From an uncultured archaeon (lineage in GTDB: Archaea; Asgardarchaeota; Heimdallarchaeia; Heimdallarchaeales; Kariarchaeaceae): 11,204 nucleotides of DNA. The translations under genes and the position numbers were made by a program. Below are positions 1 to 11,204 of this stretch, in pieces. The notes under the pieces are model-generated. The model was not told the origin of the DNA, searched no databases, and was given only the letters and a program-made list of their open reading frames with translations. Within the stretch, counting starts at the first letter, position 1; the number at the start of each line of letters is the position of its first letter. Location of the stretch: the NCBI GenBank assembly GCA_964600735.1, contig CAZRLL010000129.1:1-11204 (forward strand), written 5' to 3'.

Positions 1-1053
1 AGTAAAGTCTTTCTCCGCGTAAACTAGTGCATCTGCAAGTATTAACCTTCCTTCTGCATCAGTGTTATCTATTTCTATGGTTTTACCATTACTTGCTGTA
101 ACTACATCTGCAGGTTTAGTTGCCCTTGCCGACGGCATATTTTCGGTTAGGGGTGCTAGACCAACAGCATTTAAAGCTAAACCTAATTTTGATATTCCAA
201 GTAATGTCCCGATTACTGCAGCTGCCCCACCACAATCTCCTCTCATGGCACCCATACCAGAACCTGGTTTTAGAGAAATTCCGCCGGAATCAAATGTTAT
301 ACCCTTACCGACAAAAATAACTGGTTTATCACCTTCGTTTCCCCCATTGTAATGAATTTCTAGGAATTTTGCGGGTTCATCTGTACCTGCTGCGACTGAT
401 AAAAACGAGCCCATATTTTTCTTTTTAGCCCAATTCTCATCATGACTAATTATTTTGGTGTTTTGGATACCCTCAAACAACTTTTCGGTATGCTTAACAA
501 AATATGTAGGTGTTGCAATATTTGATGGAAGCTCGGTTAATCTTCTAGCTTCATTTTGTGATATCGCAATAATCTCACCATTATTCCAATTATTAATTTC
601 TTCTTCGTTACCGCAGAAAATTACTTCTTCAATGGTTTTCCTTTCATCTTTCTTTTGGGTTTTTAATTCATCAAATCGGTAAAGGGCTAATAATACTCCC
701 TCAGCAGTACTTTGACCATCTGAATTTAAAGCCTCTATTGCAATTCTTTTAGCACCCAATTTTCTTAGTTTTTTCACCCCCTTTGCTGCTGCAACTCTTA
801 CTGATTCGTGGTTAGTCTCATCATTTTTTCCCAAACCTACAAGAACTACACGCTTTGCAGAAACACCATTAATTCCGTAGAGAACCAATTTTTGTTTTTT
901 CTTCCCCGTAAAATCTCCAAGTGATAATACTGGTTCCAAATTATCTTTGATTCTAGCCCCAGCACCCTTTACAATGTCATCTTCATAAAACCCAATCACT
1001 ATTCCATCTAAATCTAGCGATTCAATTTGCTCACTGCTTACTGATATTTTCAT
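1..1053 (-). CDS. Leucyl aminopeptidase family M17 (C-terminus truncated by window edge)
   Basis: Reverse-strand frame open from ATG at 1053 to window start; reads MKISVSSEQIESLD... with M17 signatures VGKGITFDSGGISLKP, MRGDCGGAAAV and IEIDNTDAEGRLILADALVY. Absent from the ORF track because it leaves the window. Confidence 0.93.
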   Translation of the reverse strand, partial: MKISVSSEQIESLDLDGIVIGFYEDDIVKGAGARIKDNLEPVLSLGDFTGKKKQKLVLYGINGVSAKRVVLVGLGKNDETNHESVRVAAAKGVKKLRKLGAKRIAIEALNSDGQSTAEGVLLALYRFDELKTQKKDERKTIEEVIFCGNEEEINNWNNGEIIAISQNEARRLTELPSNIATPTYFVKHTEKLFEGIQNTKIISHDENWAKKKNMGSFLSVAAGTDEPAKFLEIHYNGGNEGDKPVIFVGKGITFDSGGISLKPGSGMGAMRGDCGGAAAVIGTLLGISKLGLALNAVGLAPLTENMPSARATKPADVVTASNGKTIEIDNTDAEGRLILADALVYAEKDFT

Positions 1054-1126
1054 TATATTCGGTTCCTTTTTTCATTACTTTTGAATTTTATTTTTTTAAT
1101 AATCTATTTTAATAATAAAACCAAAA

Positions 1127-2461
1127 CTAATTATTGTGCATATCAAAAACTGTTTTTTCAAAACTTTCCATTAGCTTATTCAGGTTGATTCCAACTAATT
1201 CACGATCTCTCATTTTCCACTCACCATTTATCATAACATCACTTACATCATTGCCTGTTGCGGAGTAAACCAAGTGAGATAGGACAGTTTCTAATCTCGT
1301 TATTGGTAATAAATATGGTTTCTTTAAATCAATTACAGCAAAATCAGCTTTCTTGCCAACTTGGACACTACCAATCGAATCCTTCCAATTTAATACTTTT
1401 GCACCACCATATGTTGCCATCTTGAGTGAAATCCAAGCAGGCATAACTGTTGGATTTAAGGCCATACTTTTTTGAGCGATTGCTGTTGTTTTCATTGTTT
1501 CAAATATATCTAGACCATTATTACTGGATGGACCATCAGTTCCCATCCCAATTTTGTTAGTATAGTCAAGCATTTCCTTTATCTTGGGAATGGCATTTCC
1601 TAATTTCATATTACTCACAGTGTTTATAGCTATACCAACCTTATTCTCTGTAATTGTTTTGATATCTTTGGTGTTCATTTCAATGCAGTGTGCAGCAATC
1701 ATATCTTTGTCTAGGACTCCTAATTTGGACAGATATTCGGTTGGAGTTTTTACTTTCAATGGTATATCGAAACCAAATCGTTTGGCTAGGGCATGAATTA
1801 AATTCATTTCATTTTTATCTTCAGCTAAATGAGTGTGTACAGCTATTTTCTTGCTTGCGGTTCTGTTGTAAGAATTTTTAAATTCATATATGTCCTGGAA
1901 ATCATCTTTGGTCACGGTGTAGGTTGCATGCGGGGTTAGAGCAACTCTAATCATGTCCCCCTCTTTTTCATGCCATGTCTTTATTATGGAAGAGAATTCA
2001 TCGACACTATTTATCCCAGAAATTAGTGGCGTTCCAAGCATCAATCTAACACCTACATCATTGAACGCCTGTGCTTCACTATTTGGGTGCCAATACATCG
2101 AATTCAGGGTTGTACAACCCGACATTAGTGCCTCCACTGCAGCTAATTTTGCACCTGCATAAACCTGATCAGCAGATAGTTTCGCTTCCAACGGCCAAAT
2201 ATGATCGTTTAACCAATTTTGCAGAGGGATATCATCTGCATATCCTCGAAACAGAGTCATTGCAGCATGTGTGTGAGTATTTACAAGACCTGGTATTAAT
2301 ACATGATTTGGGAAATCATAAACCTCCTTACCAGAGGCGTCTAATTCCTTACCCACTTCTGTGATTGTATGGTCCTCAACTGCAACCATCCCATTTTCAA
2401 TGATAAATGGCTGATCATCATGAAAACTAGCCACATAACGGGATTTAATAATAAAATCCAT
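1127..2461 (-). CDS. mtaD: Amidohydrolase, 5'-methylthioadenosine/S-adenosylhomocysteine (or 5'-deoxyadenosine) deaminase family
   Basis: 444 aa; metal-binding VNTHTHAAMTLFRGYADD, HTHLAED, AAHCIEM, and GTDGPSSNNGLDIFETMK motifs of the TRZ/ATZ/MtaD family. Confidence 0.88.
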   Translation of the reverse strand: MDFIIKSRYVASFHDDQPFIIENGMVAVEDHTITEVGKELDASGKEVYDFPNHVLIPGLVNTHTHAAMTLFRGYADDIPLQNWLNDHIWPLEAKLSADQVYAGAKLAAVEALMSGCTTLNSMYWHPNSEAQAFNDVGVRLMLGTPLISGINSVDEFSSIIKTWHEKEGDMIRVALTPHATYTVTKDDFQDIYEFKNSYNRTASKKIAVHTHLAEDKNEMNLIHALAKRFGFDIPLKVKTPTEYLSKLGVLDKDMIAAHCIEMNTKDIKTITENKVGIAINTVSNMKLGNAIPKIKEMLDYTNKIGMGTDGPSSNNGLDIFETMKTTAIAQKSMALNPTVMPAWISLKMATYGGAKVLNWKDSIGSVQVGKKADFAVIDLKKPYLLPITRLETVLSHLVYSATGNDVSDVMINGEWKMRDRELVGINLNKLMESFEKTVFDMHNN

Positions 2462-2534
2462 TATTAATTCAATGATCCAATCTGTATTTTAATAGTATTT
2501 TCAATTAAGGAATATTATCAAGTATGAAATTAAC

Positions 2535-3350
2535 TCAATACCAGTATCTTTTATCTCCTTTATCTTTAATCATATCACTAACAATTTTTGCTGCTTCATT
2601 TGCTGCTTTAATACTAGAAGCCTCTCCTTTTACCGCAAATTCGTTGGTTGCTCGATTTGCATAAACTGCACAAACTGCACCTACTTCTATATTGTATATG
2701 CTCCCCATAATAAACATCAGACTGGCTTCCATATCAAAATTCATCACATTTGCTTTCTGTAAATCCTCCACTAATGACTTCCGATGACTCGGTAAATAGT
2801 GGTTCCAACCTACCCTTCCCTGTCCCGCGTAAAATGATGAAGAACTGCCTGTGATACCAACATGATAGGGTAAATTGTTTTCCTCACAGGCTTTAATAAG
2901 CGCAGAAGTGATCATTCTTGAAGCATAAGCAGGAAACTCTGGTATTACATAATGTGCACTTGAATCTTCGAGTCGTACTGCTGCTTCGCTAATGACCAAA
3001 TCACCAAGTTCAATTTCTGGTTGTAGAGCACCACAACTACCAACACGAATAATATTTTTAATATTCACATTTTTCAATTCAGCAATCGCTATTTCACAAG
3101 CTGAAGGACCTATTCCACTTGACACGGCAGATATCTCTGTTTCCTTGTATTTTCCGGTATAAGATGTAAATTGTCGATAGTCAGCTACTTTTTTTGCTTC
3201 TTCCCAATAATCTGCAATTTTCTTTACCCTTTGGGGATTTCCTGGCATTAAGACAATATCTGCCAAATCACCGGGTTTTACTCTTAGATGATATTGAAGC
3301 CCTTCATCGGTTTCAACAGAAACAGCATCTTTTGCTTTATGATCACTCAT
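2535..3350 (-). CDS. Nucleoside phosphorylase, uridine phosphorylase-like (PNP/UDP family)
   Basis: ORF 2535..3377; likely start at internal Met (MSDHKAKDAV, 3350). Motifs VLMPGNPQRVKKIA, IIRVGSCGALQPEIELGDLVI, NFDMEASLMF typical of NP-I family phosphorylases. Confidence 0.88.
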   Translation of the reverse strand: MSDHKAKDAVSVETDEGLQYHLRVKPGDLADIVLMPGNPQRVKKIADYWEEAKKVADYRQFTSYTGKYKETEISAVSSGIGPSACEIAIAELKNVNIKNIIRVGSCGALQPEIELGDLVISEAAVRLEDSSAHYVIPEFPAYASRMITSALIKACEENNLPYHVGITGSSSSFYAGQGRVGWNHYLPSHRKSLVEDLQKANVMNFDMEASLMFIMGSIYNIEVGAVCAVYANRATNEFAVKGEASSIKAANEAAKIVSDMIKDKGDKRYWY

Positions 3351-3470
3351 TTTGATGATCGTGATAATTTTTAACAATTAAAAACACCTTAGAAGAATTA
3401 CCTAAATGAATCACAATAAAATTACACTTTATACGTCAACGATATAGTGATATGACAAAACGAAACAATT

Positions 3471-4001
3471 CTAATGGATAGCCAAAGGAAAATTCTTCTC
3501 TCCTGCCTCAATTCTTACTTTTAACCAGTTTTCATAGGGTGGTAAAGGGCAGGCATAGTTCTCACTATACGCACAATAGGGTGACATTGCAAGATTAAAA
3601 TCCAAAACAAATATATCCCCTTTTTTTTCCGGATATAAATAACGACCAGCACCATAAGAATCCTCACCTGATGTTTTGTCACGGAATGGGACAAAATATA
3701 TATCTGGGTTATCAGTTGATTGATAAACATGAATTTCAACTTCCTCTTCATTTATTTTGAATTCAAGATAACCAATGCGTAAATAATTACTCACACTACC
3801 AGTAGATTCTTCCATCTCAATAATTTCAGGTGATTCATAGGAATTTAATGTTAATTCAAATCGATAGTTTTCAGCAATTGAGTAGTATTCAAGGCTAAAA
3901 AAATCGTCTCTCAATTCATGAGGAATTGGAGAGTGATGTGACGTTTTGAAATAACGATCTTTGTTCGCTCTATCTATCTCTATCTGTTTTTTATATTTCA
4001 C
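3471..4001 (-). CDS. DUF1684-family protein
   Basis: 176 aa; conserved FVPFRDKTSGEDSYGAGRYLY...GDIFVLDFNLAMSPYCAYSENYACPLPPYENWLKVRIEAGEK pattern. Confidence 0.85.
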   Translation of the reverse strand: MKYKKQIEIDRANKDRYFKTSHHSPIPHELRDDFFSLEYYSIAENYRFELTLNSYESPEIIEMEESTGSVSNYLRIGYLEFKINEEEVEIHVYQSTDNPDIYFVPFRDKTSGEDSYGAGRYLYPEKKGDIFVLDFNLAMSPYCAYSENYACPLPPYENWLKVRIEAGEKNFPLAIH

Positions 4002-4073
4002 AATATAAAAATGGTTTTATCAAATATAAACAGTAACTTTCCGATAAAAAATGACCGCACTTTTGGAGTTAAA

Positions 4074-4556
4074 TTATCTCATAAAAGTAAATTTACCCGT
4101 TAGCAATGCTAATCCCAAAGTCAAAGTACCCAAACTCCCCATATCTCCAGCTGGTATTTGCACTATAACATCTCCCATTTCCAGATCTTTTCGAGAAAGG
4201 CCCGGATCAGAGCCACCAAAAACTGCTATCCATCTCTTCCCTTGTAGATTTTCAACAATTTTTGAATCCAGATTCTCCTTTCCATAAGGAGGAGGAGCAA
4301 CAACAATCAGTATATCAGGTGAGAAAAGTTCCTTTAAATCGGCAATTTCATACAGTGACATAAAATTAATATCGTGCTTTAAGGCAAGTTTTTGAGCAGC
4401 TGGTAATCCCCGTTGAGCAGCTGAACCCTGTGCTTGAGTAATGATCAACGATTTAAAACCCATACCAGCAGCAATTCTAACAAATTCAGAACATCGATTG
4501 GCAGATGCAACATTATGAAAAACAATTATTGGGAAGCTAGTCATATATATTATCAC
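4074..4556 (-). CDS. COG4080-like SpoU/trefoil-knot RNA methyltransferase family protein
   Basis: 160 aa, FPIIVFHNVASANRCSEFVRIAAGMGFKSLIIT...AAQRGLPAAQKLA...ILIVVAPPPYGKE; resembles archaeal proteins of this family by pattern memory, not searched. Confidence 0.6.
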   Translation of the reverse strand: MIIYMTSFPIIVFHNVASANRCSEFVRIAAGMGFKSLIITQAQGSAAQRGLPAAQKLALKHDINFMSLYEIADLKELFSPDILIVVAPPPYGKENLDSKIVENLQGKRWIAVFGGSDPGLSRKDLEMGDVIVQIPAGDMGSLGTLTLGLALLTGKFTFMR

Positions 4557-4620
4557 CTCGAATGATGATTAAAATTTCTGAGGTAGGTAAATTGGTATTA
4601 GCAAATAGCTTGTATGTTTT

Positions 4621-5091
4621 CTATACGTCATTACTAAATTCATTTTCTCGAATTAGTGATGATGATAATAAATTTCCATACTCATCCTTTAGCCAAGGGA
4701 TCACAATTACATCAAGAGGTGACAGTCCATTTTCTTCACGCATTTGATTGATTTTATGTGCACTTTTCCTTGTCTCTTGAGAAACGACAATTACATCAGC
4801 GCGAGGATCGTTTGGAGCAGGTCCCCAATTATCATACAGTGGATCCACGTCCACCTGATCACAATATTGCGATAAGTATTCTCTCACATTTTTTGCCCGT
4901 ATTTCATAACCCTGTATAAAGTTGTTAAATTGTTTATCCTTGAAGAGTTTCTTACCTAGTTCTTCGGAAACTATACCCGCAAAAACCTCCTTGGCTGCAA
5001 ATGCTGCGGTGTGAAGTAATAGCCGATGAGCATCGTGGAGTCTATCAAAAGTTCCTCCAAGAACTGCACGGGTGTATGGTTTCTCATCCAT
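4621..5091 (-). CDS. coaD: Phosphopantetheine adenylyltransferase, archaeal/eukaryotic type
   Basis: 156 aa; nucleotidyltransferase motif AVLGGTFDRLHDAHRLLL and ADVIVVSQETRKSAHKINQMREENGLSPLDVIVIP...SSSLIR. Confidence 0.9.
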   Translation of the reverse strand: MDEKPYTRAVLGGTFDRLHDAHRLLLHTAAFAAKEVFAGIVSEELGKKLFKDKQFNNFIQGYEIRAKNVREYLSQYCDQVDVDPLYDNWGPAPNDPRADVIVVSQETRKSAHKINQMREENGLSPLDVIVIPWLKDEYGNLLSSSLIRENEFSNDV

Positions 5092-5345
5092 ATGTTAGTT
5101 GTTGTCTATGTTGAAAATATATAATATTACTTGCGTGGATTGGGTTTAAAATCAATACGGGGCACATTTATTAGTCGAGTCACTCTTCAATTAAAAATTT
5201 TTGAAATAAAATCCTATAGATTGCATTTTACAACACAATAAGGTAACAACTAATTTAAACGGGTTTTCCTGATTTTACACTGTAAGAGTCTTACCTGAAT
5301 CGACTCAACTATTTTTGAATGCTAGAAGGATCAAATGTATGATAT

Positions 5346-5417
5346 ATTATGAAATGATGAACGTGAGTCCTGGATTTTTCACAAAAAATGACCTTAAAAC
5401 CGCAAACTGATCATAAT
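5346..5417 (+). ncRNA. Candidate C/D-box sRNA
   Basis: C box ATGATGA (5354-5360) and D box CTGA (5407-5410) flanked by a perfect 7-bp terminal stem ATTATGA (5346-5352) / TCATAAT (5411-5417). Possible degenerate D' CTGG (5370-5373); C' is weak. Confidence 0.38.
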
Positions 5418-5490
5418 TATCAACAAAAGACATTCCTTATAGCGATTTACAACAATTATGGTATTTTATTGGATGATCCATAAATACAAT

Positions 5491-5500
5491 TTTTTATAAG
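5491..5500 (+). promoter_or_regulatory. TATA-like box for the 5S rRNA transcription unit
   Basis: TTTTTATAAG centred about 25-27 nt upstream of 5522, the first base of the closing stem of the permuted 5S RNA. Confidence 0.6.
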
Positions 5501-5521
5501 GATAATCGATTCATAGAATTA

Positions 5522-5671
5522 GACTCATCAACCGGATAAGTTAAGCCTCGTCCCGGATTTATTTGTACTAATCTGCGTGAGCGTTTGGGAATTTGGTCAA
5601 GCTGCGTATTATCGCGGTCATAGGGCGAGTGTGACACCGGAAAACATCCGAACTCCGATAGCTGGTGAGTC
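5522..5671 (+). rRNA. Circularly permuted 5S ribosomal RNA (3' portion encoded before 5' portion)
   Basis: Segment 5536-5605 matches the 3' half of archaeal 5S (AAGTTAAGCCTCG, TTGTACTA, GCGTGAGC, TTTGGGAA, GCTGC); segment 5614-5660 matches the 5' half (GCGGTCATAGGGCGAG, GTGACACCGG, CATCCGAACTCCGA). Helices: I 5601-5606/5613-5618 capped by UAUUAU; II 5547-5553/5623-5629 (GGGCGAG with CUCGUCC); III 5638-5641/5654-5657; V with GUGA tetraloop 5577-5580; new terminal stem 5522-5530/5663-5671. Confidence 0.9.
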
Positions 5672-5673
5672 GA

Positions 5674-5684
5674 TTTTTCTTTTT
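5674..5684 (+). terminator. T-rich archaeal-type terminator of the 5S gene
   Basis: TTTTTCTTTTT begins 3 nt after the last base of the closing stem. Confidence 0.6.
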
Positions 5685-5738
5685 CGTTATTCATTAGTTT
5701 TAGGTTACAAATATTTTTGAATTGAATTCTGAAATGAT

Positions 5739-6680
5739 TTAAAAATTAGCTATCTCAGGTAAAACCTCATCTCTTAGTGTTTCAATTGGGGTAATTTCAA
5801 AGATATTGGGAAGATTGACAATCGCATGCTCAATACCTACATCTGCTAATTCTTTTAGGTAATCAATTACATCCTGAGGAGATTGTTTATCAGGTATAAG
5901 CTCTACAGTACCAAGAGTTGTTTTTTCAATCTCATCATAATTTCTACCCAAATTCTCGCAATGATTTTTCAATACTTGTAATTTATTCAACAAGGTCTCT
6001 TTGCCTGCTCTTGAAAACAAATTACAGGTATCTGCATATTGGGCAACCATTCTTAGCGTTTTTTTCTCACCCATTCCTCCAATCATAATTTTTGGATGTG
6101 GTTTTTGTATCGAAGCTGGAGCATTATGTGTATCTTTCAATTGGTAATGTGCTCCAGTGAATGATTCAGAATCATCAGACCACATCTGTTTTGCGATCTG
6201 TATTGCCTCTTCCAACATTTCAAATCGAATCTTAACAGCTGGAAAGGGGAAACCATAAGCTTCTGCTTCTTCTTTGTACCAGGCAGCACCGATCCCAAAA
6301 TAAGCTCTCCCTTGGGATAATACATCTAGAGTTGTTGCTTGTTTGATTAAAAATGCTGGATTTCTGTATATCACACCAGTTAATAGAGTTCCTAGTTTAA
6401 CATTTTCTGTTATTCCAGCAAAAAAATTAAGCACAGAATAGCCTTCAAGCATGGGATCTGTATATTGTAGACCAAATAAATTTTGAATCTGATAATAGTG
6501 ATCCATCACCCAAAGTGAGTGAAATCCTCCATTATCAACTGTTTTTGCGATCGCTATTAAATTTTTTGTGATTTCAGAGTCCCCACCAGGAAAGGTAAAA
6601 TTTGGAATCTGTATACCAAGCTTCATCTGCTTGAATAATTCTTGAAATTTTATAAGTTTATCTGAATTCCTAGAATTCAA
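5739..6680 (-). CDS. Luciferase-like (LLM class) F420-dependent oxidoreductase
   Basis: 313 aa; MKLGIQIPNF, HSLWVMDHYYQI, VKLGTLLTGVIYRNPAFLIKQATTLDVLSQGRAYFGIGAAWYKEEAEAYGFPFP, PKIMIGGMGEKKTLRMVAQYADTCN. Confidence 0.9.
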   Translation of the reverse strand: MNSRNSDKLIKFQELFKQMKLGIQIPNFTFPGGDSEITKNLIAIAKTVDNGGFHSLWVMDHYYQIQNLFGLQYTDPMLEGYSVLNFFAGITENVKLGTLLTGVIYRNPAFLIKQATTLDVLSQGRAYFGIGAAWYKEEAEAYGFPFPAVKIRFEMLEEAIQIAKQMWSDDSESFTGAHYQLKDTHNAPASIQKPHPKIMIGGMGEKKTLRMVAQYADTCNLFSRAGKETLLNKLQVLKNHCENLGRNYDEIEKTTLGTVELIPDKQSPQDVIDYLKELADVGIEHAIVNLPNIFEITPIETLRDEVLPEIANF

Positions 6681-6845
6681 TGACTACATTAGTGAAATAT
6701 GAAAAATACGCGAAATGCAGAATTATATCTTTTCGAAATTATAATGTAAAAGAGTTTATGAGCAATAATGAAGGATTAAATATAACGTCTAGTTATCCAA
6801 AAGCTTGCAAAAATATTTTTAAAAATAGAATCCAGCATTTTTCTA

Positions 6846-7229
6846 GTGACGAAGAGTAATATTGTCAAAGACATATACCTAAAATTGATTGATAAAGCAT
6901 TTACTAATGGTATAATTTCGACTGATGAATCCCAAATGTTGGAGAAGATTAAAAATGAACTCGTGGATTTTGACAAATATCTGACTATTGCTATGGAAGA
7001 TAGGATTATCACGCCAGATGAGTTAGAGACTTTAAAGAAAATCCAAAATTCAATTGTATCTGAAGCAGAAACAGTTGCCAAAGAGGATAAAATAATTACT
7101 CGGGACGAAGAAATATTATTGGAAACATTGAACAAATTGCTAAAGAAATCAATTGACAGGCATGTTGATATAAGTCAAATTAATAAAATGTATCGAGAAA
7201 TTTTCAAAACCAGACTATTTATTCCCTGA
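6846..7229 (+). CDS. Small uncharacterised protein with three tandem acidic repeats
   Basis: 127 aa, GTG start in ORF track; repeat pattern xxNGIISTDESQMLEKI / MEDRIITPDELETLKKI / KEDKIITRDEEILLETL. Confidence 0.65.
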   Translation: MTKSNIVKDIYLKLIDKAFTNGIISTDESQMLEKIKNELVDFDKYLTIAMEDRIITPDELETLKKIQNSIVSEAETVAKEDKIITRDEEILLETLNKLLKKSIDRHVDISQINKMYREIFKTRLFIP

Positions 7230-7233
7230 TTTG

Positions 7234-8253
7234 TTATCTTGGGACTCCTTCCATCTTCCATTGTTTCAATAGTTTTACCAGTTCTTCCTTCTTATCGATA
7301 CCTTTGGAAACGAAGCTGTATAACTGGGATAGGGCAATGCTTCCCAAATGCTCGTATGCTTCATCCATCTCGCTTATTGTAGATATTCGATCTTGAAATC
7401 CTTTATCAGTGGTTGCTTCATCGACGAAATCCAAGAATAGATTGAGTATTTGAAGGGTTTGTTTATCTACTTTTTCTTCTTCTGTTTTTTCTGGTTTTAT
7501 TTTAACAGGTTTTTTAGGTTTTTCTTCCTCTTTCACAACTTCCTTATCAGGAGCGGTTTCCTTTGTAACTTTAGTAGGTTTAATTGCTGGTTCTTTCTCT
7601 ATAGGTGAGATATCTGAGTACTCCTTTACACCATCCAAATACTCCTTGGTGTCAAATGTATATGAATCGGGTTCGGAGAGAATTACGGATAAGGTGTCAT
7701 GAATTGGTAGTAAAACTGATGTTAATTCATCTTTATCCATTATTATCTGTTTAATATCATGACACAGTTGAGATATTGACTTGTTTAATTGTTCCTCCCG
7801 GCCAATAGGTCCACCCTCATCCTCTTCTTCTGCTTGCATTTCTTGCATCATTTTCAATTGAATGCGCAGTGCATCCCTTTCACTATCAAATAAATCTGAT
7901 TTATTCTCTAATTCTTGTTTTTGTTTTTCTAGAGAAGTTTTTTCAGTAATTAATGCAGTTAGGTCATTCTGTTGTTCATCCAATTTTGCAGTTAATGCTG
8001 ATTCTCTTTCTTGTAATTTATCTTGTAGAGTTTTTTCAGTTTCTTCCAATTGTTCTCTTAATTCTTGTATCATTTCTTGATCGGTATTATTATCCAACTT
8101 TTTCTTTAATATTTCAATTGTTTTTATTCTTCGCATGGCCAGCTGAGGACTTATATTTTCTTTTAATAGATAGTACACAATAAATTCAATATCTGCCACA
8201 GTCATATCGCTTTTATCAATCAATTCACGCAATGACTCGAGGGTAACTTCCAT
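7234..8253 (-). CDS. Uncharacterised coiled-coil protein
   Basis: 339 aa; N-terminal helical domain, long heptad-like Glu/Leu/Gln region (about aa 50-145), K/E/P-rich linker (about aa 215-260), helical C-terminal domain. Confidence 0.75.
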   Translation of the reverse strand: MEVTLESLRELIDKSDMTVADIEFIVYYLLKENISPQLAMRRIKTIEILKKKLDNNTDQEMIQELREQLEETEKTLQDKLQERESALTAKLDEQQNDLTALITEKTSLEKQKQELENKSDLFDSERDALRIQLKMMQEMQAEEEDEGGPIGREEQLNKSISQLCHDIKQIIMDKDELTSVLLPIHDTLSVILSEPDSYTFDTKEYLDGVKEYSDISPIEKEPAIKPTKVTKETAPDKEVVKEEEKPKKPVKIKPEKTEEEKVDKQTLQILNLFLDFVDEATTDKGFQDRISTISEMDEAYEHLGSIALSQLYSFVSKGIDKKEELVKLLKQWKMEGVPR

Positions 8254-8372
8254 TAAAGATTGTCTCTTTATTTATTGCTAAAGCTTTTCGGAAATGGATA
8301 CTTTGGAATGATATATAATTTCAACATTTATTGCAGTAAAACAAAAAAGATGATCAAATAAAGTGAAAGATC

Positions 8373-9074
8373 TTATTTTTTTATTTTCGCATAAGATTCA
8401 TTCTGGATATTTTTTTCTAATTCTCTTAATTTAGATGCATCGTAATTCAATATTCCACTATCCCAAAATACAATTTCATCATTTTTTGTCCGGATTATCC
8501 TTTTTTCACCTAATTCAATTTTTTCAATGTTCGTAAAATGGCTATTATAGTATGTTTTTGCAGTATTAATAATTTCTCGACTTCTTTTAAATTTACCAAG
8601 CCTTGAGAATGCCTCTGCTTTTAGACAAGTAAGATTGAAATTTAGTTCTCTAGGTAAAGGATATTTATTGGCAAATATCTCGTCAATGGTTTGCAGTACT
8701 TCAATAAAAGCCTCATTCTTATAATAAGTTAATATTTGATAAATTTTTGTCATTTGAAAATTTATTTGTTTTGTTAATTTATCGATGGTTAGATAATTTA
8801 CCAGATTATCAGTGTAGAATTTTCCATCTTTTAATTCTTGATCTGGTATTTCTCCTTCAAAATCATGAGAAATTATGAAGAGAGTGTTGTGTGGTGCATT
8901 ACCCATTTCGAAATTAAGAATACACTGTTCCTTTGCTTCAGAAACACTCATTATTTGATTGGAAAGCAAATAAATCAATTCTGAATTGGTATTAAGTTCC
9001 CATATATTCCCATTAAATGCAAATCGATTCCAGTTCAATTTCTTGATATTTTGATTTGCTACATTCAATTTCAC
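8373..9074 (-). CDS. Uncharacterised protein
   Basis: 233 aa uninterrupted ORF, with a central TPR-like helical stretch (LNFNLTCLKAEAFSRLGKFKRSREIINTAKTYYNS); no confident family. Confidence 0.65.
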   Translation of the reverse strand: MKLNVANQNIKKLNWNRFAFNGNIWELNTNSELIYLLSNQIMSVSEAKEQCILNFEMGNAPHNTLFIISHDFEGEIPDQELKDGKFYTDNLVNYLTIDKLTKQINFQMTKIYQILTYYKNEAFIEVLQTIDEIFANKYPLPRELNFNLTCLKAEAFSRLGKFKRSREIINTAKTYYNSHFTNIEKIELGEKRIIRTKNDEIVFWDSGILNYDASKLRELEKNIQNESYAKIKK

Positions 9075-9179
9075 TCAATCCTTTAAATTTATAGGCTTTC
9101 ATATATACAAGAAACTATTGGTTAATTATGTGTTCTTATGGGACACAATGATTTTAATCCAAATACTTTGAGATTTTTG

Positions 9180-9209
9180 ATATTCTCTAATTATTTTCAT
9201 TGAGAATAT
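9180..9209. repeat. Inverted repeat, 8-bp stem
   Basis: ATATTCTC (9180-9187) and GAGAATAT (9202-9209), 14-nt spacer, in the divergent intergenic region before the NAD kinase. Confidence 0.4.
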
Positions 9210-9356
9210 GTTATAGAATCAAATTATTGGATTTAAATTGTGAATTTTTAAATTCTAATGAAGCGGTATCAGATAAATTATCTAATTTGATATTGATCAT
9301 TGATTATAATTTTAAAGTCACTTACAGAACTGAAAGTATAGATCAGAGGGGAATTA

Positions 9357-10292
9357 ATGTCAATCAAGATCCATGGGATATGTATTAGTACTCAAGCAAG
9401 GAACGAATATGATAAAGTTTCTCAAATGATTTTAGATCTTACTCCAGACACAGAAATTATCAATTTTTATGATGTATTGAAGGATATTTCCTTACTTGAA
9501 ATATGTGATTATATTTTTACAGTAGGGGGTGATGGATCCGTGGCTTGGTTAATTCAAACATTTTTTGAAACATTTGGAAATGTAAAAAACTTAAAACCAA
9601 TTGTACCTATAATAAGACCTGAATCAGCTGGATACCTAAAACAACTGGATTATGAAGAGAAAAAATTTGTTTCAGGTTTAAAAAATATATTGGATGGACA
9701 TTTTACTGTACAAGATCGAACAATTTTGAGAACTAAGATCTGTAATAACAAATATGTTGCGGTAAATGAGATTTATTTCCAAAGTGCACCACAAATTGGT
9801 AATTTTACAGTCTCTATTCAACATGAGAATAGTCACTATCGCCCAATGACCACAACTATGGCAGATGGTGTAATGATAGTCACACCAATTGGTTCAACTG
9901 CATGGTCACTATCATACCGGGGGCAAATTAGTTTAAATGAGGATGCTCTTGAGCTGGTTTTTACAGGTGGAATTCATTCCTCAGCTAATTTCACTTTACC
10001 CAGAAATCCTCTAAAAATAACTTTACAAATGAAAAATTCATCCGTAAATGAAGAGACAATTGATGCTTATGAAAAAACAAGAAAAAAATTAGGCTTACAA
10101 CAGGATCTTACATCGATGGAGACTTTGGGTATTGTTTACGGTCCAAGAATTATCATTGATGGAAAGGTGGTTTCCTTTGATGTCACGGAATTGGAGATTG
10201 ATTCAAGCTTAACCATCCCGTTTGTATTCCTTCATCAGGAAACAGTGGTTGATAAGGCAAGAAAATTGACCAAGCAACCATCGTTTAAATAA
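9357..10292 (+). CDS. NAD kinase (ATP-NAD/polyphosphate kinase family)
   Basis: 311 aa; YIFTVGGDGSVAWLI, VAVNEIYF, ADGVMIVTPIGSTAWSLSYRGQI and downstream VFTGGI correspond to the GGDG, NE/D and TPTGSTAY motifs. AGAGGGG ribosome-binding-like sequence upstream of ATG. Confidence 0.85.
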   Translation: MSIKIHGICISTQARNEYDKVSQMILDLTPDTEIINFYDVLKDISLLEICDYIFTVGGDGSVAWLIQTFFETFGNVKNLKPIVPIIRPESAGYLKQLDYEEKKFVSGLKNILDGHFTVQDRTILRTKICNNKYVAVNEIYFQSAPQIGNFTVSIQHENSHYRPMTTTMADGVMIVTPIGSTAWSLSYRGQISLNEDALELVFTGGIHSSANFTLPRNPLKITLQMKNSSVNEETIDAYEKTRKKLGLQQDLTSMETLGIVYGPRIIIDGKVVSFDVTELEIDSSLTIPFVFLHQETVVDKARKLTKQPSFK

Positions 10293-10361
10293 TAATTCAT
10301 TAAAATGATTTAATCAGTTTCAGTCGTAAGTTTTTTCAGTTCATTATTATTTTATCAAATT

Positions 10362-11189
10362 GTGGTAAAGAATTCTAAACAAATAGTATTAATTACAGGG
10401 GCATCGAAAGGTATTGGACTTGTAACTGCTAACTATCTAGAAATGAAAGGTTACCGTGTGTATGGTACATCCCGAAGTTCACCAGATAGTTTTGAAGAAT
10501 TTGATTTTTCATTTTTACAACTTGATATCACTGATGATGATTCTGTTAGCAATTGTGTGAATGAATTAATTGAAAGAGAAGGGAGGATTGATGCACTAGT
10601 TAATAATGCTGGATATTCTCTAGTTGGTCCGATTTCAGATACATCGATCGATGATATAAAAAGGCAATATGATACTAATTTTTTTGGAGCTCATAGGATG
10701 ATTCTAGAGGTCCTTCCAATAATGAAAAAACAACAATTTGGAAGGATTATTAATGTTGGATCATTTGGTGGTCGGATTGGTTTACCATTCCAATCATTTT
10801 ATTCTGCTTCAAAGTCTTCACTGGCAGTTTTTACAGATTCGCTTAGAATTGAATTATATACATCAGGAATAAAATTAAGTTTAATTGAACCAGGGGATGT
10901 TAATACCGGAAATCATGATCATCATGTAATTAATGCACAAAATTTCAATCCAGAAAATAATGAAGTTGCCAGAAGAGCTTTGGAAGTAATGAGACAAGAT
11001 GAATTAAAAGGAATATCTCCAGAAAAAGTCGCAAAGACAATTCATAAAGCAATAAAATCAAAAAGACCTAAGCCTAGATATTTGGTAGGATTCCAAGCAA
11101 AATTCTTTGGTACATTGCAAAGATTTCTTCCTTATACATTACAAGAAAGAATCAATTTTATGTATTATAAAGTACCAAGAAAATCTTAA
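10362..11189 (+). CDS. Short-chain dehydrogenase/reductase (SDR)
   Basis: 275 aa, GTG start; TGASKGIG cofactor motif, NNAGYS, and YSASKSSL catalytic Tyr/Lys motif. Confidence 0.93.
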   Translation: MVKNSKQIVLITGASKGIGLVTANYLEMKGYRVYGTSRSSPDSFEEFDFSFLQLDITDDDSVSNCVNELIEREGRIDALVNNAGYSLVGPISDTSIDDIKRQYDTNFFGAHRMILEVLPIMKKQQFGRIINVGSFGGRIGLPFQSFYSASKSSLAVFTDSLRIELYTSGIKLSLIEPGDVNTGNHDHHVINAQNFNPENNEVARRALEVMRQDELKGISPEKVAKTIHKAIKSKRPKPRYLVGFQAKFFGTLQRFLPYTLQERINFMYYKVPRKS

Positions 11190-11204
11190 GATTTTAAAAG
11201 ACCA

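Follow-up and report, generated by a model that had tools for sequence, protein, structure and literature searches.

The window analysed here is an 11,204-nucleotide (nt) stretch of DNA from an uncultured archaeon of the Kariarchaeaceae (Asgardarchaeota, Heimdallarchaeia; assembly GCA_964600735.1, contig CAZRLL010000129.1, positions 1 to 11,204 of the forward strand), and the element in question is a segment at positions 5522-5671 in which the two halves of a 5S ribosomal RNA (rRNA) gene stand in swapped order and are enclosed by a terminal stem. When the intact window was compared with Rfam, no family was found at its gathering score, and the 5S rRNA family (RF00001) was not reported around the site even at E ≤ 10. 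When the window was cut at the permutation point, RF00001 was the best family for both pieces and the only one matched, with 5531-5605 aligning to model positions 43-115 (15.6 bits) and 5614-5662 to model positions 5-53 (13.6 bits). Model positions 43-115 precede positions 5-53 in the DNA, contrary to the collinear order of RF00001, and the match of both halves in swapped order indicates that the gene encodes the 3′ part of the 5S rRNA first. From 5′ to 3′, the gene carries the 3′ strand of helix II, helices V and IV with loops E and D, a helix I hairpin, loop A, the 5′ strand of helix II, and helix III with loop C, so that the permutation break separates helix III from loop B within the beta domain. 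The features of the locus, including those of a bulge-helix-bulge (BHB) motif described below, are the following.

5493-5499, plus strand: TATA-box-like element TTTATAA, 22 nt before the first base of the stem; putative promoter, from archaeal geometry.
5522-5532, plus strand: 5′ strand of the outer stem, GACUCAUCA, then A5531 (mismatched) and C5532; predicted leader, which would be discarded after cleavage.
5533-5536, plus strand: CGGA in the leader, 5′ strand of the BHB central helix, pairing with UCCG at 5654-5657; identical to the 5′ strand of helix III.
5537-5539, plus strand: 5′ bulge UAA, with a predicted cut at 5538/5539; the invariant A5539 would be the first base of the excised RNA.
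5539-5659, plus strand: predicted excised and circularised 5S rRNA of 121 nt, delimited from the BHB rule, the RF00001 halves and covariation.
5540-5542, plus strand: GUU of the universal GUUAAGCC, 5′ strand of the BHB inner helix, pairing with AAC at 5651-5653 in the precursor.
5547-5554, plus strand: 3′ strand of helix II, with its partner at 5623-5629; five of seven pairs changed on both sides.
5568-5576/5581-5588, plus strand: helix IV hairpin with loop D, 100% paired; six of seven pairs with changes on both sides.
5601-5618, plus strand: helix I as a closed hairpin, with GCUGCG (5601-5606), loop UAUUAU (5607-5612) and CGCGGU (5613-5618).
5623-5629, plus strand: 5′ strand of helix II, covarying with 5547-5554.
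5638-5641, plus strand: CGGA, 5′ strand of helix III, partner of UCCG at 5654-5657 in the mature fold.
5642-5653, plus strand: loop C with the universal CCGAAC, in which AAC (5651-5653) is the 3′ strand of the BHB inner helix in the precursor.
5654-5657, plus strand: UCCG, the 3′ strand common to the BHB central helix (precursor) and to helix III (mature).
5658-5660, plus strand: 3′ bulge AUA, with a predicted cut at 5659/5660.
5661-5671, plus strand: 3′ strand of the outer stem, G5661 and C5662 (mismatched), then UGGUGAGUC at 5663-5671; predicted trailer, likewise discarded.
5674-5684, plus strand: two T5 runs, TTTTTCTTTTT, a putative archaeal-type oligo-T terminator directly after the stem.
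4621-5091, minus strand: gene for pantetheine-phosphate adenylyltransferase (PPAT), adjoining the 5S gene.

The gene was then considered in a comparative set of 14 distinct permuted 5S genes, made up of that of the window and those of loci L003-L006, L010, L013, L015, L025, L027, L042, L047, and L048, the last of which holds two tandem copies. Orthologues were obtained from contigs with PPAT homologues, by exact-protein look-ups, and from a DNA pattern scan of species-representative genomes. Their contigs belong to Heimdallarchaeia and are labelled Kariarchaeaceae/Kariarchaeota or Heimdallarchaeota, with one further contig (L025) that is Hodarchaeales-like: its permuted gene adjoins a thioredoxin reductase gene whose product is 86% identical to Hodarchaeales proteins. 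A protein search of genome contigs with the neighbouring PPAT recovered no locus, and a DNA pattern scan of metagenomes added a single true locus, a duplicate of L010. The remaining metagenome matches, and those in bacterial and haloarchaeal genomes, were due to chance or were canonical 5S genes with a CCGAAC that happened to follow. The covariance model R1, derived from the 14 genes, gave scores of 139-157 bits for these genes versus 22-37 bits for canonical 5S genes; neither L044-L046 nor L049, an Asgard locus farther removed, yielded an additional copy with it. At gathering score, Rfam reported a 5S rRNA in none of 14 related loci, and no canonical 5S was seen in any related locus by the locus-level Rfam scan, these searches having covered the loci around the permuted genes.

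The motifs that are universal in 5S rRNA, namely CAUAG in loop A, CCGAAC in loop C, GUUAAGCC, and GUAC...GAA in loop E, which are also common to canonical 5S rRNAs, were invariant in the 14 orthologues. Covariation was scored for helices I to IV, the MAFFT gaps in the region of helix V being inconsistent; helices I, II, III, and IV were 94-100% paired in the 14 sequences, with many double changes. Helix I was 100% paired, with changes on both sides in four of seven pairs, and covaried as far as its closing pair; it has 6 base pairs (bp) in the window and 6-8 bp across the orthologues, and the loops that close it have 3-6 nt and show no sequence resemblance to each other (UAUUAU, CUUUGA, CUUGA, CUCGA, AAUUA, ACG in L042, CAUGA, and UACAA). 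An earlier reading of the window, made from its letters alone and referred to here as the first-pass annotation, had already described the locus as a permuted 5S gene with helix I closed by a loop. Both points were upheld.

The stem that brackets exactly both halves of the permuted 5S is formed by GACTCATCA (5522-5530) and TGGTGAGTC (5663-5671), which pair over nine consecutive positions with a single wobble (U5528-G5665), and it gains the pair C5532-G5661 past the A5531/C5662 mismatch. Taken alone, this stem is not significant: a 9-bp stem with at most one G-U pair at the same spacing was found in 65 of 300 shuffles of a 350-nt region, the window holds 16 stems of this kind, and the fold of 5522-5671 had a z-score of only −1.37. 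It is the position of the stem, together with the comparative data, that makes it real. In the 14-sequence alignment, all 11 pairs of the outer stem showed changes on both sides and 87.7% of cells were paired, the strand pairs found among the orthologues including GACUCAUCA/UGGUGAGUC, GACUCAUUU/AAAUGAGUC, GCUCUUAGAA/UUCUAAGAGC, AUCUUGGG/CCCAAGAU, and AGCUUAUUUAA/UUAAAUAAGUU. For the precursor structure as a whole, 95.4% of cells were paired versus 68.1% in column shuffles, none of 500 shuffles reaching the observed value, and pairing fell to 30-46% when the partner was slid by 1-3 columns. The changes on both sides in all 11 pairs indicate that the stem is under selection. A chance origin, plausible for the window alone, was thus ruled out by covariation. 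A bacterial-type intrinsic terminator was also discarded, since the stem encloses 132 nt and hence forms no terminator hairpin. The first-pass annotation had reported the nine-position pairing with one G-U as it stands here, had taken it to suggest selection for bringing the new ends together, and had proposed to look for compensatory changes at orthologous loci; when this test was run, the stem passed it.

The sequence of the outer stem is not conserved and its length ranges from 7 to approximately 40 bp among the orthologues. In L027 (3259-3414), L047 (9692-9848), and L010 (65-219), each taken with its flanks, the complementarity between leader and trailer extended far beyond the 9-11 bp of the window, with stems of 30-40 bp that resemble the processing stems of 16S and 23S rRNAs. 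Those of L027 and L047 reach approximately 40 pairs, and their duplex energies are −46 and −38 kcal/mol.

Inside the outer stem lies the BHB motif, which in the window consists of the 3′ bulge AUA, a 4-bp helix CGGA/UCCG, the 5′ bulge UAA, and an inner helix GUU/AAC. The layout is common to every orthologue: after the outer stem, four bases of the 5′ strand pair with the four bases that follow CCGAAC. The two bulges are of 3 nt, on opposite strands and 4 bp apart, in 13 of the 14 sequences (the 3′ bulge has 3 nt in all 14 and the 5′ bulge in 13), and the alignment has no gaps at either junction. The central helix was 100% paired, with changes on both sides in three of its four pairs, and occurs as CGGA/UCCG, CGAG/CUCG, CGGG/CCCG, CCAG/CUGG, CAAG/CUUG, CUGG/CCAG, and CAGG/CCUG. 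The inner helix GUU/AAC is invariant in the 14 sequences, and covariation thus neither supports nor contradicts it.

Two 3-nt bulges around a 4-bp helix, flanked by an outer and an inner helix, form the hBHBh′ arrangement of substrates of the splicing endonuclease EndA. As in permuted tRNA genes, the 3′ half is encoded ahead of the 5′ half and the two ends of the precursor together make up a BHB. Cleavage of a BHB takes place after the second base of each bulge. The archaeal splicing endonuclease excises tRNA introns and also frees 16S and 23S rRNAs from their processing stems as circles (PMC8339473), and Asgard archaea possess an (alpha-beta)2 EndA with an L1 loop and broad BHB specificity (PMC5829648).

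One strand of the motif has two mutually exclusive partners, as UCCG (5654-5657) covaries both with CGGA of the leader (5533-5536) and with CGGA of helix III (5638-5641), the latter helix being itself 100% paired in the 14 sequences with changes on both sides in three of its four pairs. In L048, a pair of permuted 5S genes lies in tandem at 9164-9479 on the minus strand of a 1.13-Mb JGI contig, and both genes have a BHB. The few differences between these copies are compensatory: leader, helix III 5′ strand, and helix III 3′ strand read CUGG/CUGG/CCAG in one copy versus CAGG/CAGG/CCUG in the other, a triple compensatory change, and a U-A pair of helix I in one is C-G in the other. Minimum free energy folds of the precursors contained the BHB central helix in 8 of 14 sequences, including the window, and helix III in one of 14, whereas circular folds obtained after virtual excision had helix III fully formed in 11 of 14. 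The maintenance of both exclusive pairings points to two successive structures. The possibility that the leader element ACCGGAUAAG is simply a duplicated 3′ strand of helix III was rejected, since in L005, L013, L027, and others the two are complementary and not identical.

These pairings suggest the following order of events. The leader (5522-5532) would first pair with the trailer (5661-5671), CGGA of the leader (5533-5536) would then capture the helix III 3′ strand UCCG (5654-5657), and GUU (5540-5542) would pair with AAC (5651-5653), so that each strand would keep a 3-nt bulge, with 4 bp between the two, which is the geometry of an EndA substrate. EndA would cut both bulges (5538/5539 and 5659/5660), and ligation by RtcB would give a covalently closed RNA of about 121 nt with the predicted junction CCGAACUCCGAU|AGUUAAGCC (or, in the other notation used, CCGAACUCCGAU|AGUUAAGCCUCG). 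After excision, loop C, helix III, and loop B would again be continuous, UCCG would re-pair with 5638-5641, and the leader-trailer stem would be discarded. The predicted circles measured 120-125 nt in all orthologues. In a comparison of virtual splicing and re-opening that covered 11 sequences, the last three orthologues having been added later, the virtually spliced sequences opened in the helix I loop aligned end to end with canonical archaeal and bacterial 5S rRNAs. The one difference was a single extra base at the junction (GAUAGUUAAGCC versus GAAGUUAAGCC). RNAalifold recovered helices I to IV from the spliced sequences, with compensatory changes in 16 of the 25 predicted pairs.

Taken together, we put at roughly 75% the joint probability that the locus is a circularly permuted 5S rRNA gene transcribed on its own in an Asgard archaeon of the Heimdallarchaeia, its transcription start and stop being predicted, and that both transcript ends would join in a BHB processing motif with the stem as its outer helix, leading to an EndA-type excision and circularisation. 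The swapped gene order, the 5S identity, the covariation of the stem, of the BHB central helix, and of helices I to IV, and the constancy of the bulge sizes are established by the sequences, whereas EndA cleavage, ligation, and the final form of the RNA are predicted. The stem is most likely a processing stem that would be cut off and would not be part of the mature rRNA, and a permuted 5S gene with a putative splicing-type motif is conserved across Heimdallarchaeia.

Several observations, however, weigh against this interpretation. Cleavage, ligation, and circularity are entirely deduced from sequence, and 5S rRNA was stated not to undergo circularisation in the archaea studied so far (PMC12918454). 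The inner helix has only 3 bp, is invariant, and has a pairing probability of 0.00-0.17, while L025 has a 2-nt 5′ bulge opposite its 3-nt 3′ bulge. The spliced junction would contain three unpaired bases (AUA) versus two (AA) in canonical 5S rRNA. The single-sequence circular fold of the window's own RNA did not reproduce the 5S fold, and the structure thus rests on comparative evidence. Finally, in the region upstream of the 5S gene of L003 (3231-3260, minus strand), the TATA-like box conserved with the window is separated from the stem by 9 nt only, a spacing that is hard to reconcile with transcription of the 5′ strand of the stem. With the usual archaeal distance between box and start, the transcript would begin within the BHB. 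The stem of L003 nevertheless shows compensatory changes.

Each part of this arrangement has a known counterpart. Archaeal 16S and 23S rRNAs likewise form a leader-trailer helix with a BHB, EndA cleavage and ligation circularise the rRNA, and leader and trailer are discarded (PMC8339473, PMC12918454). BHB circularisation is the normal archaeal route for these rRNAs (PMC8339473), a circular 23S rRNA was reported inside mature ribosomes (PMC12918454), and a circularly permuted 23S rRNA in Pyrococcus furiosus was listed with the BHB-processed rRNAs (PMC7758197). Unlike the permuted gene described here, in which an internal junction between loop B and helix III would be built, the 16S and 23S genes are collinear and their natural ends are joined. 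Permuted tRNA genes, known in Cyanidioschyzon merolae (Soma et al. 2007) and Thermofilum pendens (Chan et al. 2011; both cited in PMC5829648), have the 3′ half first and a short linker, as here, with precursor ends that form a BHB and a splicing endonuclease and a ligase expected to restore connectivity. The permuted gene of the window differs from them in that it encodes a 5S rRNA, in that the central helix of its BHB borrows a strand of the mature helix III by means of a leader copy of the partner, and in that its linker is a 3-6 nt hairpin loop devoid of RNase P or tRNase Z signals, so that the RNA may remain a circle for good.

Full-text searches of the literature yielded no description of a permuted 5S gene in archaea. 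The sole permuted 5S rRNA described is mtPerm-5S of the mitochondria of brown algae and other stramenopiles (Valach et al. 2014, PMC4267664), which likewise has helix I as a closed hairpin and is missed by the standard 5S model; its ends lie at the alpha/gamma three-way junction, and the mature RNA is itself permuted, with no sign of splicing. By contrast, the break described here separates helix III from loop B, and the BHB around it predicts that it is repaired. The gene does not have the defining features of mtPerm-5S. An engineered circularly permuted 5S rRNA of E. coli, inserted in the 23S rRNA, reportedly showed that a loop-closed helix I with an opening elsewhere is compatible with ribosome function; unlike the gene of the window, that RNA is artificial, bacterial, and made without splicing. 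Among archaea, Halobacterium and Sulfolobus also have circular RNAs derived from canonical 5S genes (Danan et al. 2012, as cited in PMC12558985). Those circles have heterogeneous junctions, arise from collinear genes, are interpreted as related to degradation, and involve neither a BHB nor a permuted gene.

Whether the circle, once formed, would persist or be opened was weighed separately. One possible course, which we hold to be rather unlikely, is that the BHB circle is subsequently opened in the helix I loop (5607-5612) to give a conventional linear 5S rRNA, the terminal stem still being discarded. Every 5S rRNA known to date is linear, and permuted tRNA genes are known to take this pathway (Soma et al. 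2007; Chan et al. 2011; cited in PMC5829648). However, the linker in helix I has 3-6 nt (only ACG in L042), its sequence is not conserved, and it has no tRNA-like or other recognisable processing signal, a signal for a second cleavage having been seen in the helix I loops of none of the 14 sequences. In addition, helix I is a stable hairpin of 6-8 bp that covaries to its closing pair, and the circular 23S rRNA of mature archaeal ribosomes (PMC12918454) indicates that re-opening is not obligatory. A short and non-conserved helix I loop suggests that the 5S rRNA may stay circular, or may be re-opened by some nuclease; we favour, with moderate confidence, a final 5S rRNA that would stay circular. 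The broader proposal, that Heimdallarchaeia, including Hodarchaeales-like lineages, which are the archaea placed nearest to eukaryotes, would have no collinear 5S gene, would make their sole 5S rRNA by a tRNA-splicing-type route, and would have ribosomes with a circular 5S rRNA, is more tentative and, in our estimation, somewhat short of an even chance.

It is improbable that the transcript is left uncleaved and that the mature rRNA is a linear permuted 5S clamped by the 9-bp stem, which would then persist as an extra helix at the junction of loop B and helix III, much as the first-pass annotation had proposed when it described a permanent helix protruding from loop B. A structural helix would also covary, a mature permuted 5S rRNA exists in brown-algal mitochondria (PMC4267664), and the 5S rRNA of Halococcus morrhuae can carry a large insertion (PMC7530397). 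The TATA box 22 nt ahead of the stem and the T-runs directly after it, in the window and four orthologues, would likewise delimit a transcript extending little beyond the stem and the 5S. Such a helix does not account for the covariation of a leader tetranucleotide with the helix III 3′ strand, which this tetranucleotide contests with the true partner, nor for 3-nt bulges 4 bp apart in essentially every orthologue, and a variation from 7 to approximately 40 bp is unexpected of a structural element. The tandem genes of L048 also require some excision step. A retained stem would keep the competitor of helix III attached, with which selection on the leader element is hard to reconcile. The stem appears instead to be the outer helix of a conserved BHB, excision at whose bulges would restore a 5S junction of canonical length and order.

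It is highly improbable, and already contradicted by covariation, that the locus is merely a relic without function, left by an old tandem duplication of 5S and reaching from one copy into the other, with terminal complementarity due to chance: 9-bp stems at this spacing are common by chance, L025 has a decayed partial copy, and L048 has tandem copies, but the 14 orthologues have invariant universal motifs and compensatory changes in the scored helices I to IV and in the stem, the promoter-like box and the terminator are conserved, no canonical 5S was detected at any related locus, and the prediction of 5S rRNA genes is reported to have failed in complete Heimdallarchaeum genomes (Wu et al. 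2022, PMC8813620).

A 5S rRNA gene processed by way of a BHB would have several consequences. The gene for 5S rRNA, a universal molecule, is taken to be trivial to recognise; standard tools fail here. A permuted gene would cause exactly the failure of 5S prediction in Heimdallarchaeum, and would explain the misses of annotation pipelines as well as of a dedicated attempt in Heimdallarchaeia (PMC8813620). The same failure affects the 5S criterion used for grading metagenome-assembled genomes. 5S rRNA would join the archaeal rRNAs that are matured via BHB circularisation, contrary to current reviews, and EndA and RtcB would become necessary to translation in this lineage through a second class of RNA. 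The archaea most closely related to eukaryotes would offer a testable case of an rRNA that may be circular, and the R1 covariance model and the predicted junction sequence can be searched for directly in transcriptomes. If the sole 5S rRNA is indeed circular, neither the permuted cellular 5S gene nor the circular 5S rRNA would have a precedent.

The arrangement may have originated in a tandem duplication, as the transcript of two tandem 5S genes would already carry a near-BHB. Canonical archaeal 5S rRNA reads GAAC-CCGG-AA-GUU around helix III (e.g., in L033), and between a leader and a trailer copy of this sequence AAC is complementary to GUU and CCGG to itself, with AA left over as bulges. 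L025, with CUGG-AA-GUU in its leader and AAC-CCGG-AAA in its trailer, looks close to this proposed ancestral state. The same contig has a decayed partial copy (3203-3275, plus strand; R1 score of 18.5 bits) about 350 nt upstream of its intact gene (3550-3706), which contains the leader, the 5′ strand of the BHB, the 3′ strand of helix II, and helix IV, and looks like a remnant of a tandem duplication.

The surroundings of the gene are partly conserved. The spacing of 22 nt between the TATA-like box and the stem was found in the window, L004, L005, L006, and L013, and T-runs follow the trailer in nearly all orthologues. A 66-residue open reading frame on the minus strand (5494-5694), which runs over the element, was rejected as a gene because it is absent from the gene calls of the source-like contig and because the conservation pattern is that of a base-paired RNA. 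The PPAT gene adjoins the permuted 5S gene in most loci, and the closest named relative of its product in the window is from Candidatus Kariarchaeaceae archaeon (Asgard class Heimdallarchaeia). This PPAT is eukaryote-like, in that its next best matches after the Asgard homologues are plant proteins (41-43% identity). The linkage of PPAT and 5S, often together with a DUF2122/SpoU-like gene, is kept at PPAT identities to the window down to 44%, and the gene at 4074-4556 (minus strand) of the window was grouped with PPAT (4621-5091, minus strand) in this observation.

Upstream of the 5S gene, an element resembling a C/D-box small RNA was noticed at 5346-5417 (plus strand), with a stem formed by ATTATGA (5346-5352) and TCATAAT (5411-5417), a C box ATGATGA (5354-5360), and a D box CTGA (5407-5410). 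It gave only sub-threshold matches to Rfam snoRNA families (about 18 bits). Its first guide region contains GTGAGTC (5363-5369), which is identical to the 3′ strand of the 5S terminal stem and is thus complementary to the leader strand. This element was not retained as part of the 5S system, as the other loci have no such element ahead of their 5S gene.

Downstream of the 5S terminator, a match to snoR12 (5698-5764, plus strand; 19.3 bits, E = 0.75) overlaps the 3′ end of a luciferase-like gene on the opposite strand and is probably due to chance. Directly after the stem, at 5672-5680, the window reads GATTTTTC and L001, an ENA scaffold with an identical PPAT protein, reads GCTGTTTC, a difference which indicates that the window stems either from a near relative within one population or from another assembly of that population.

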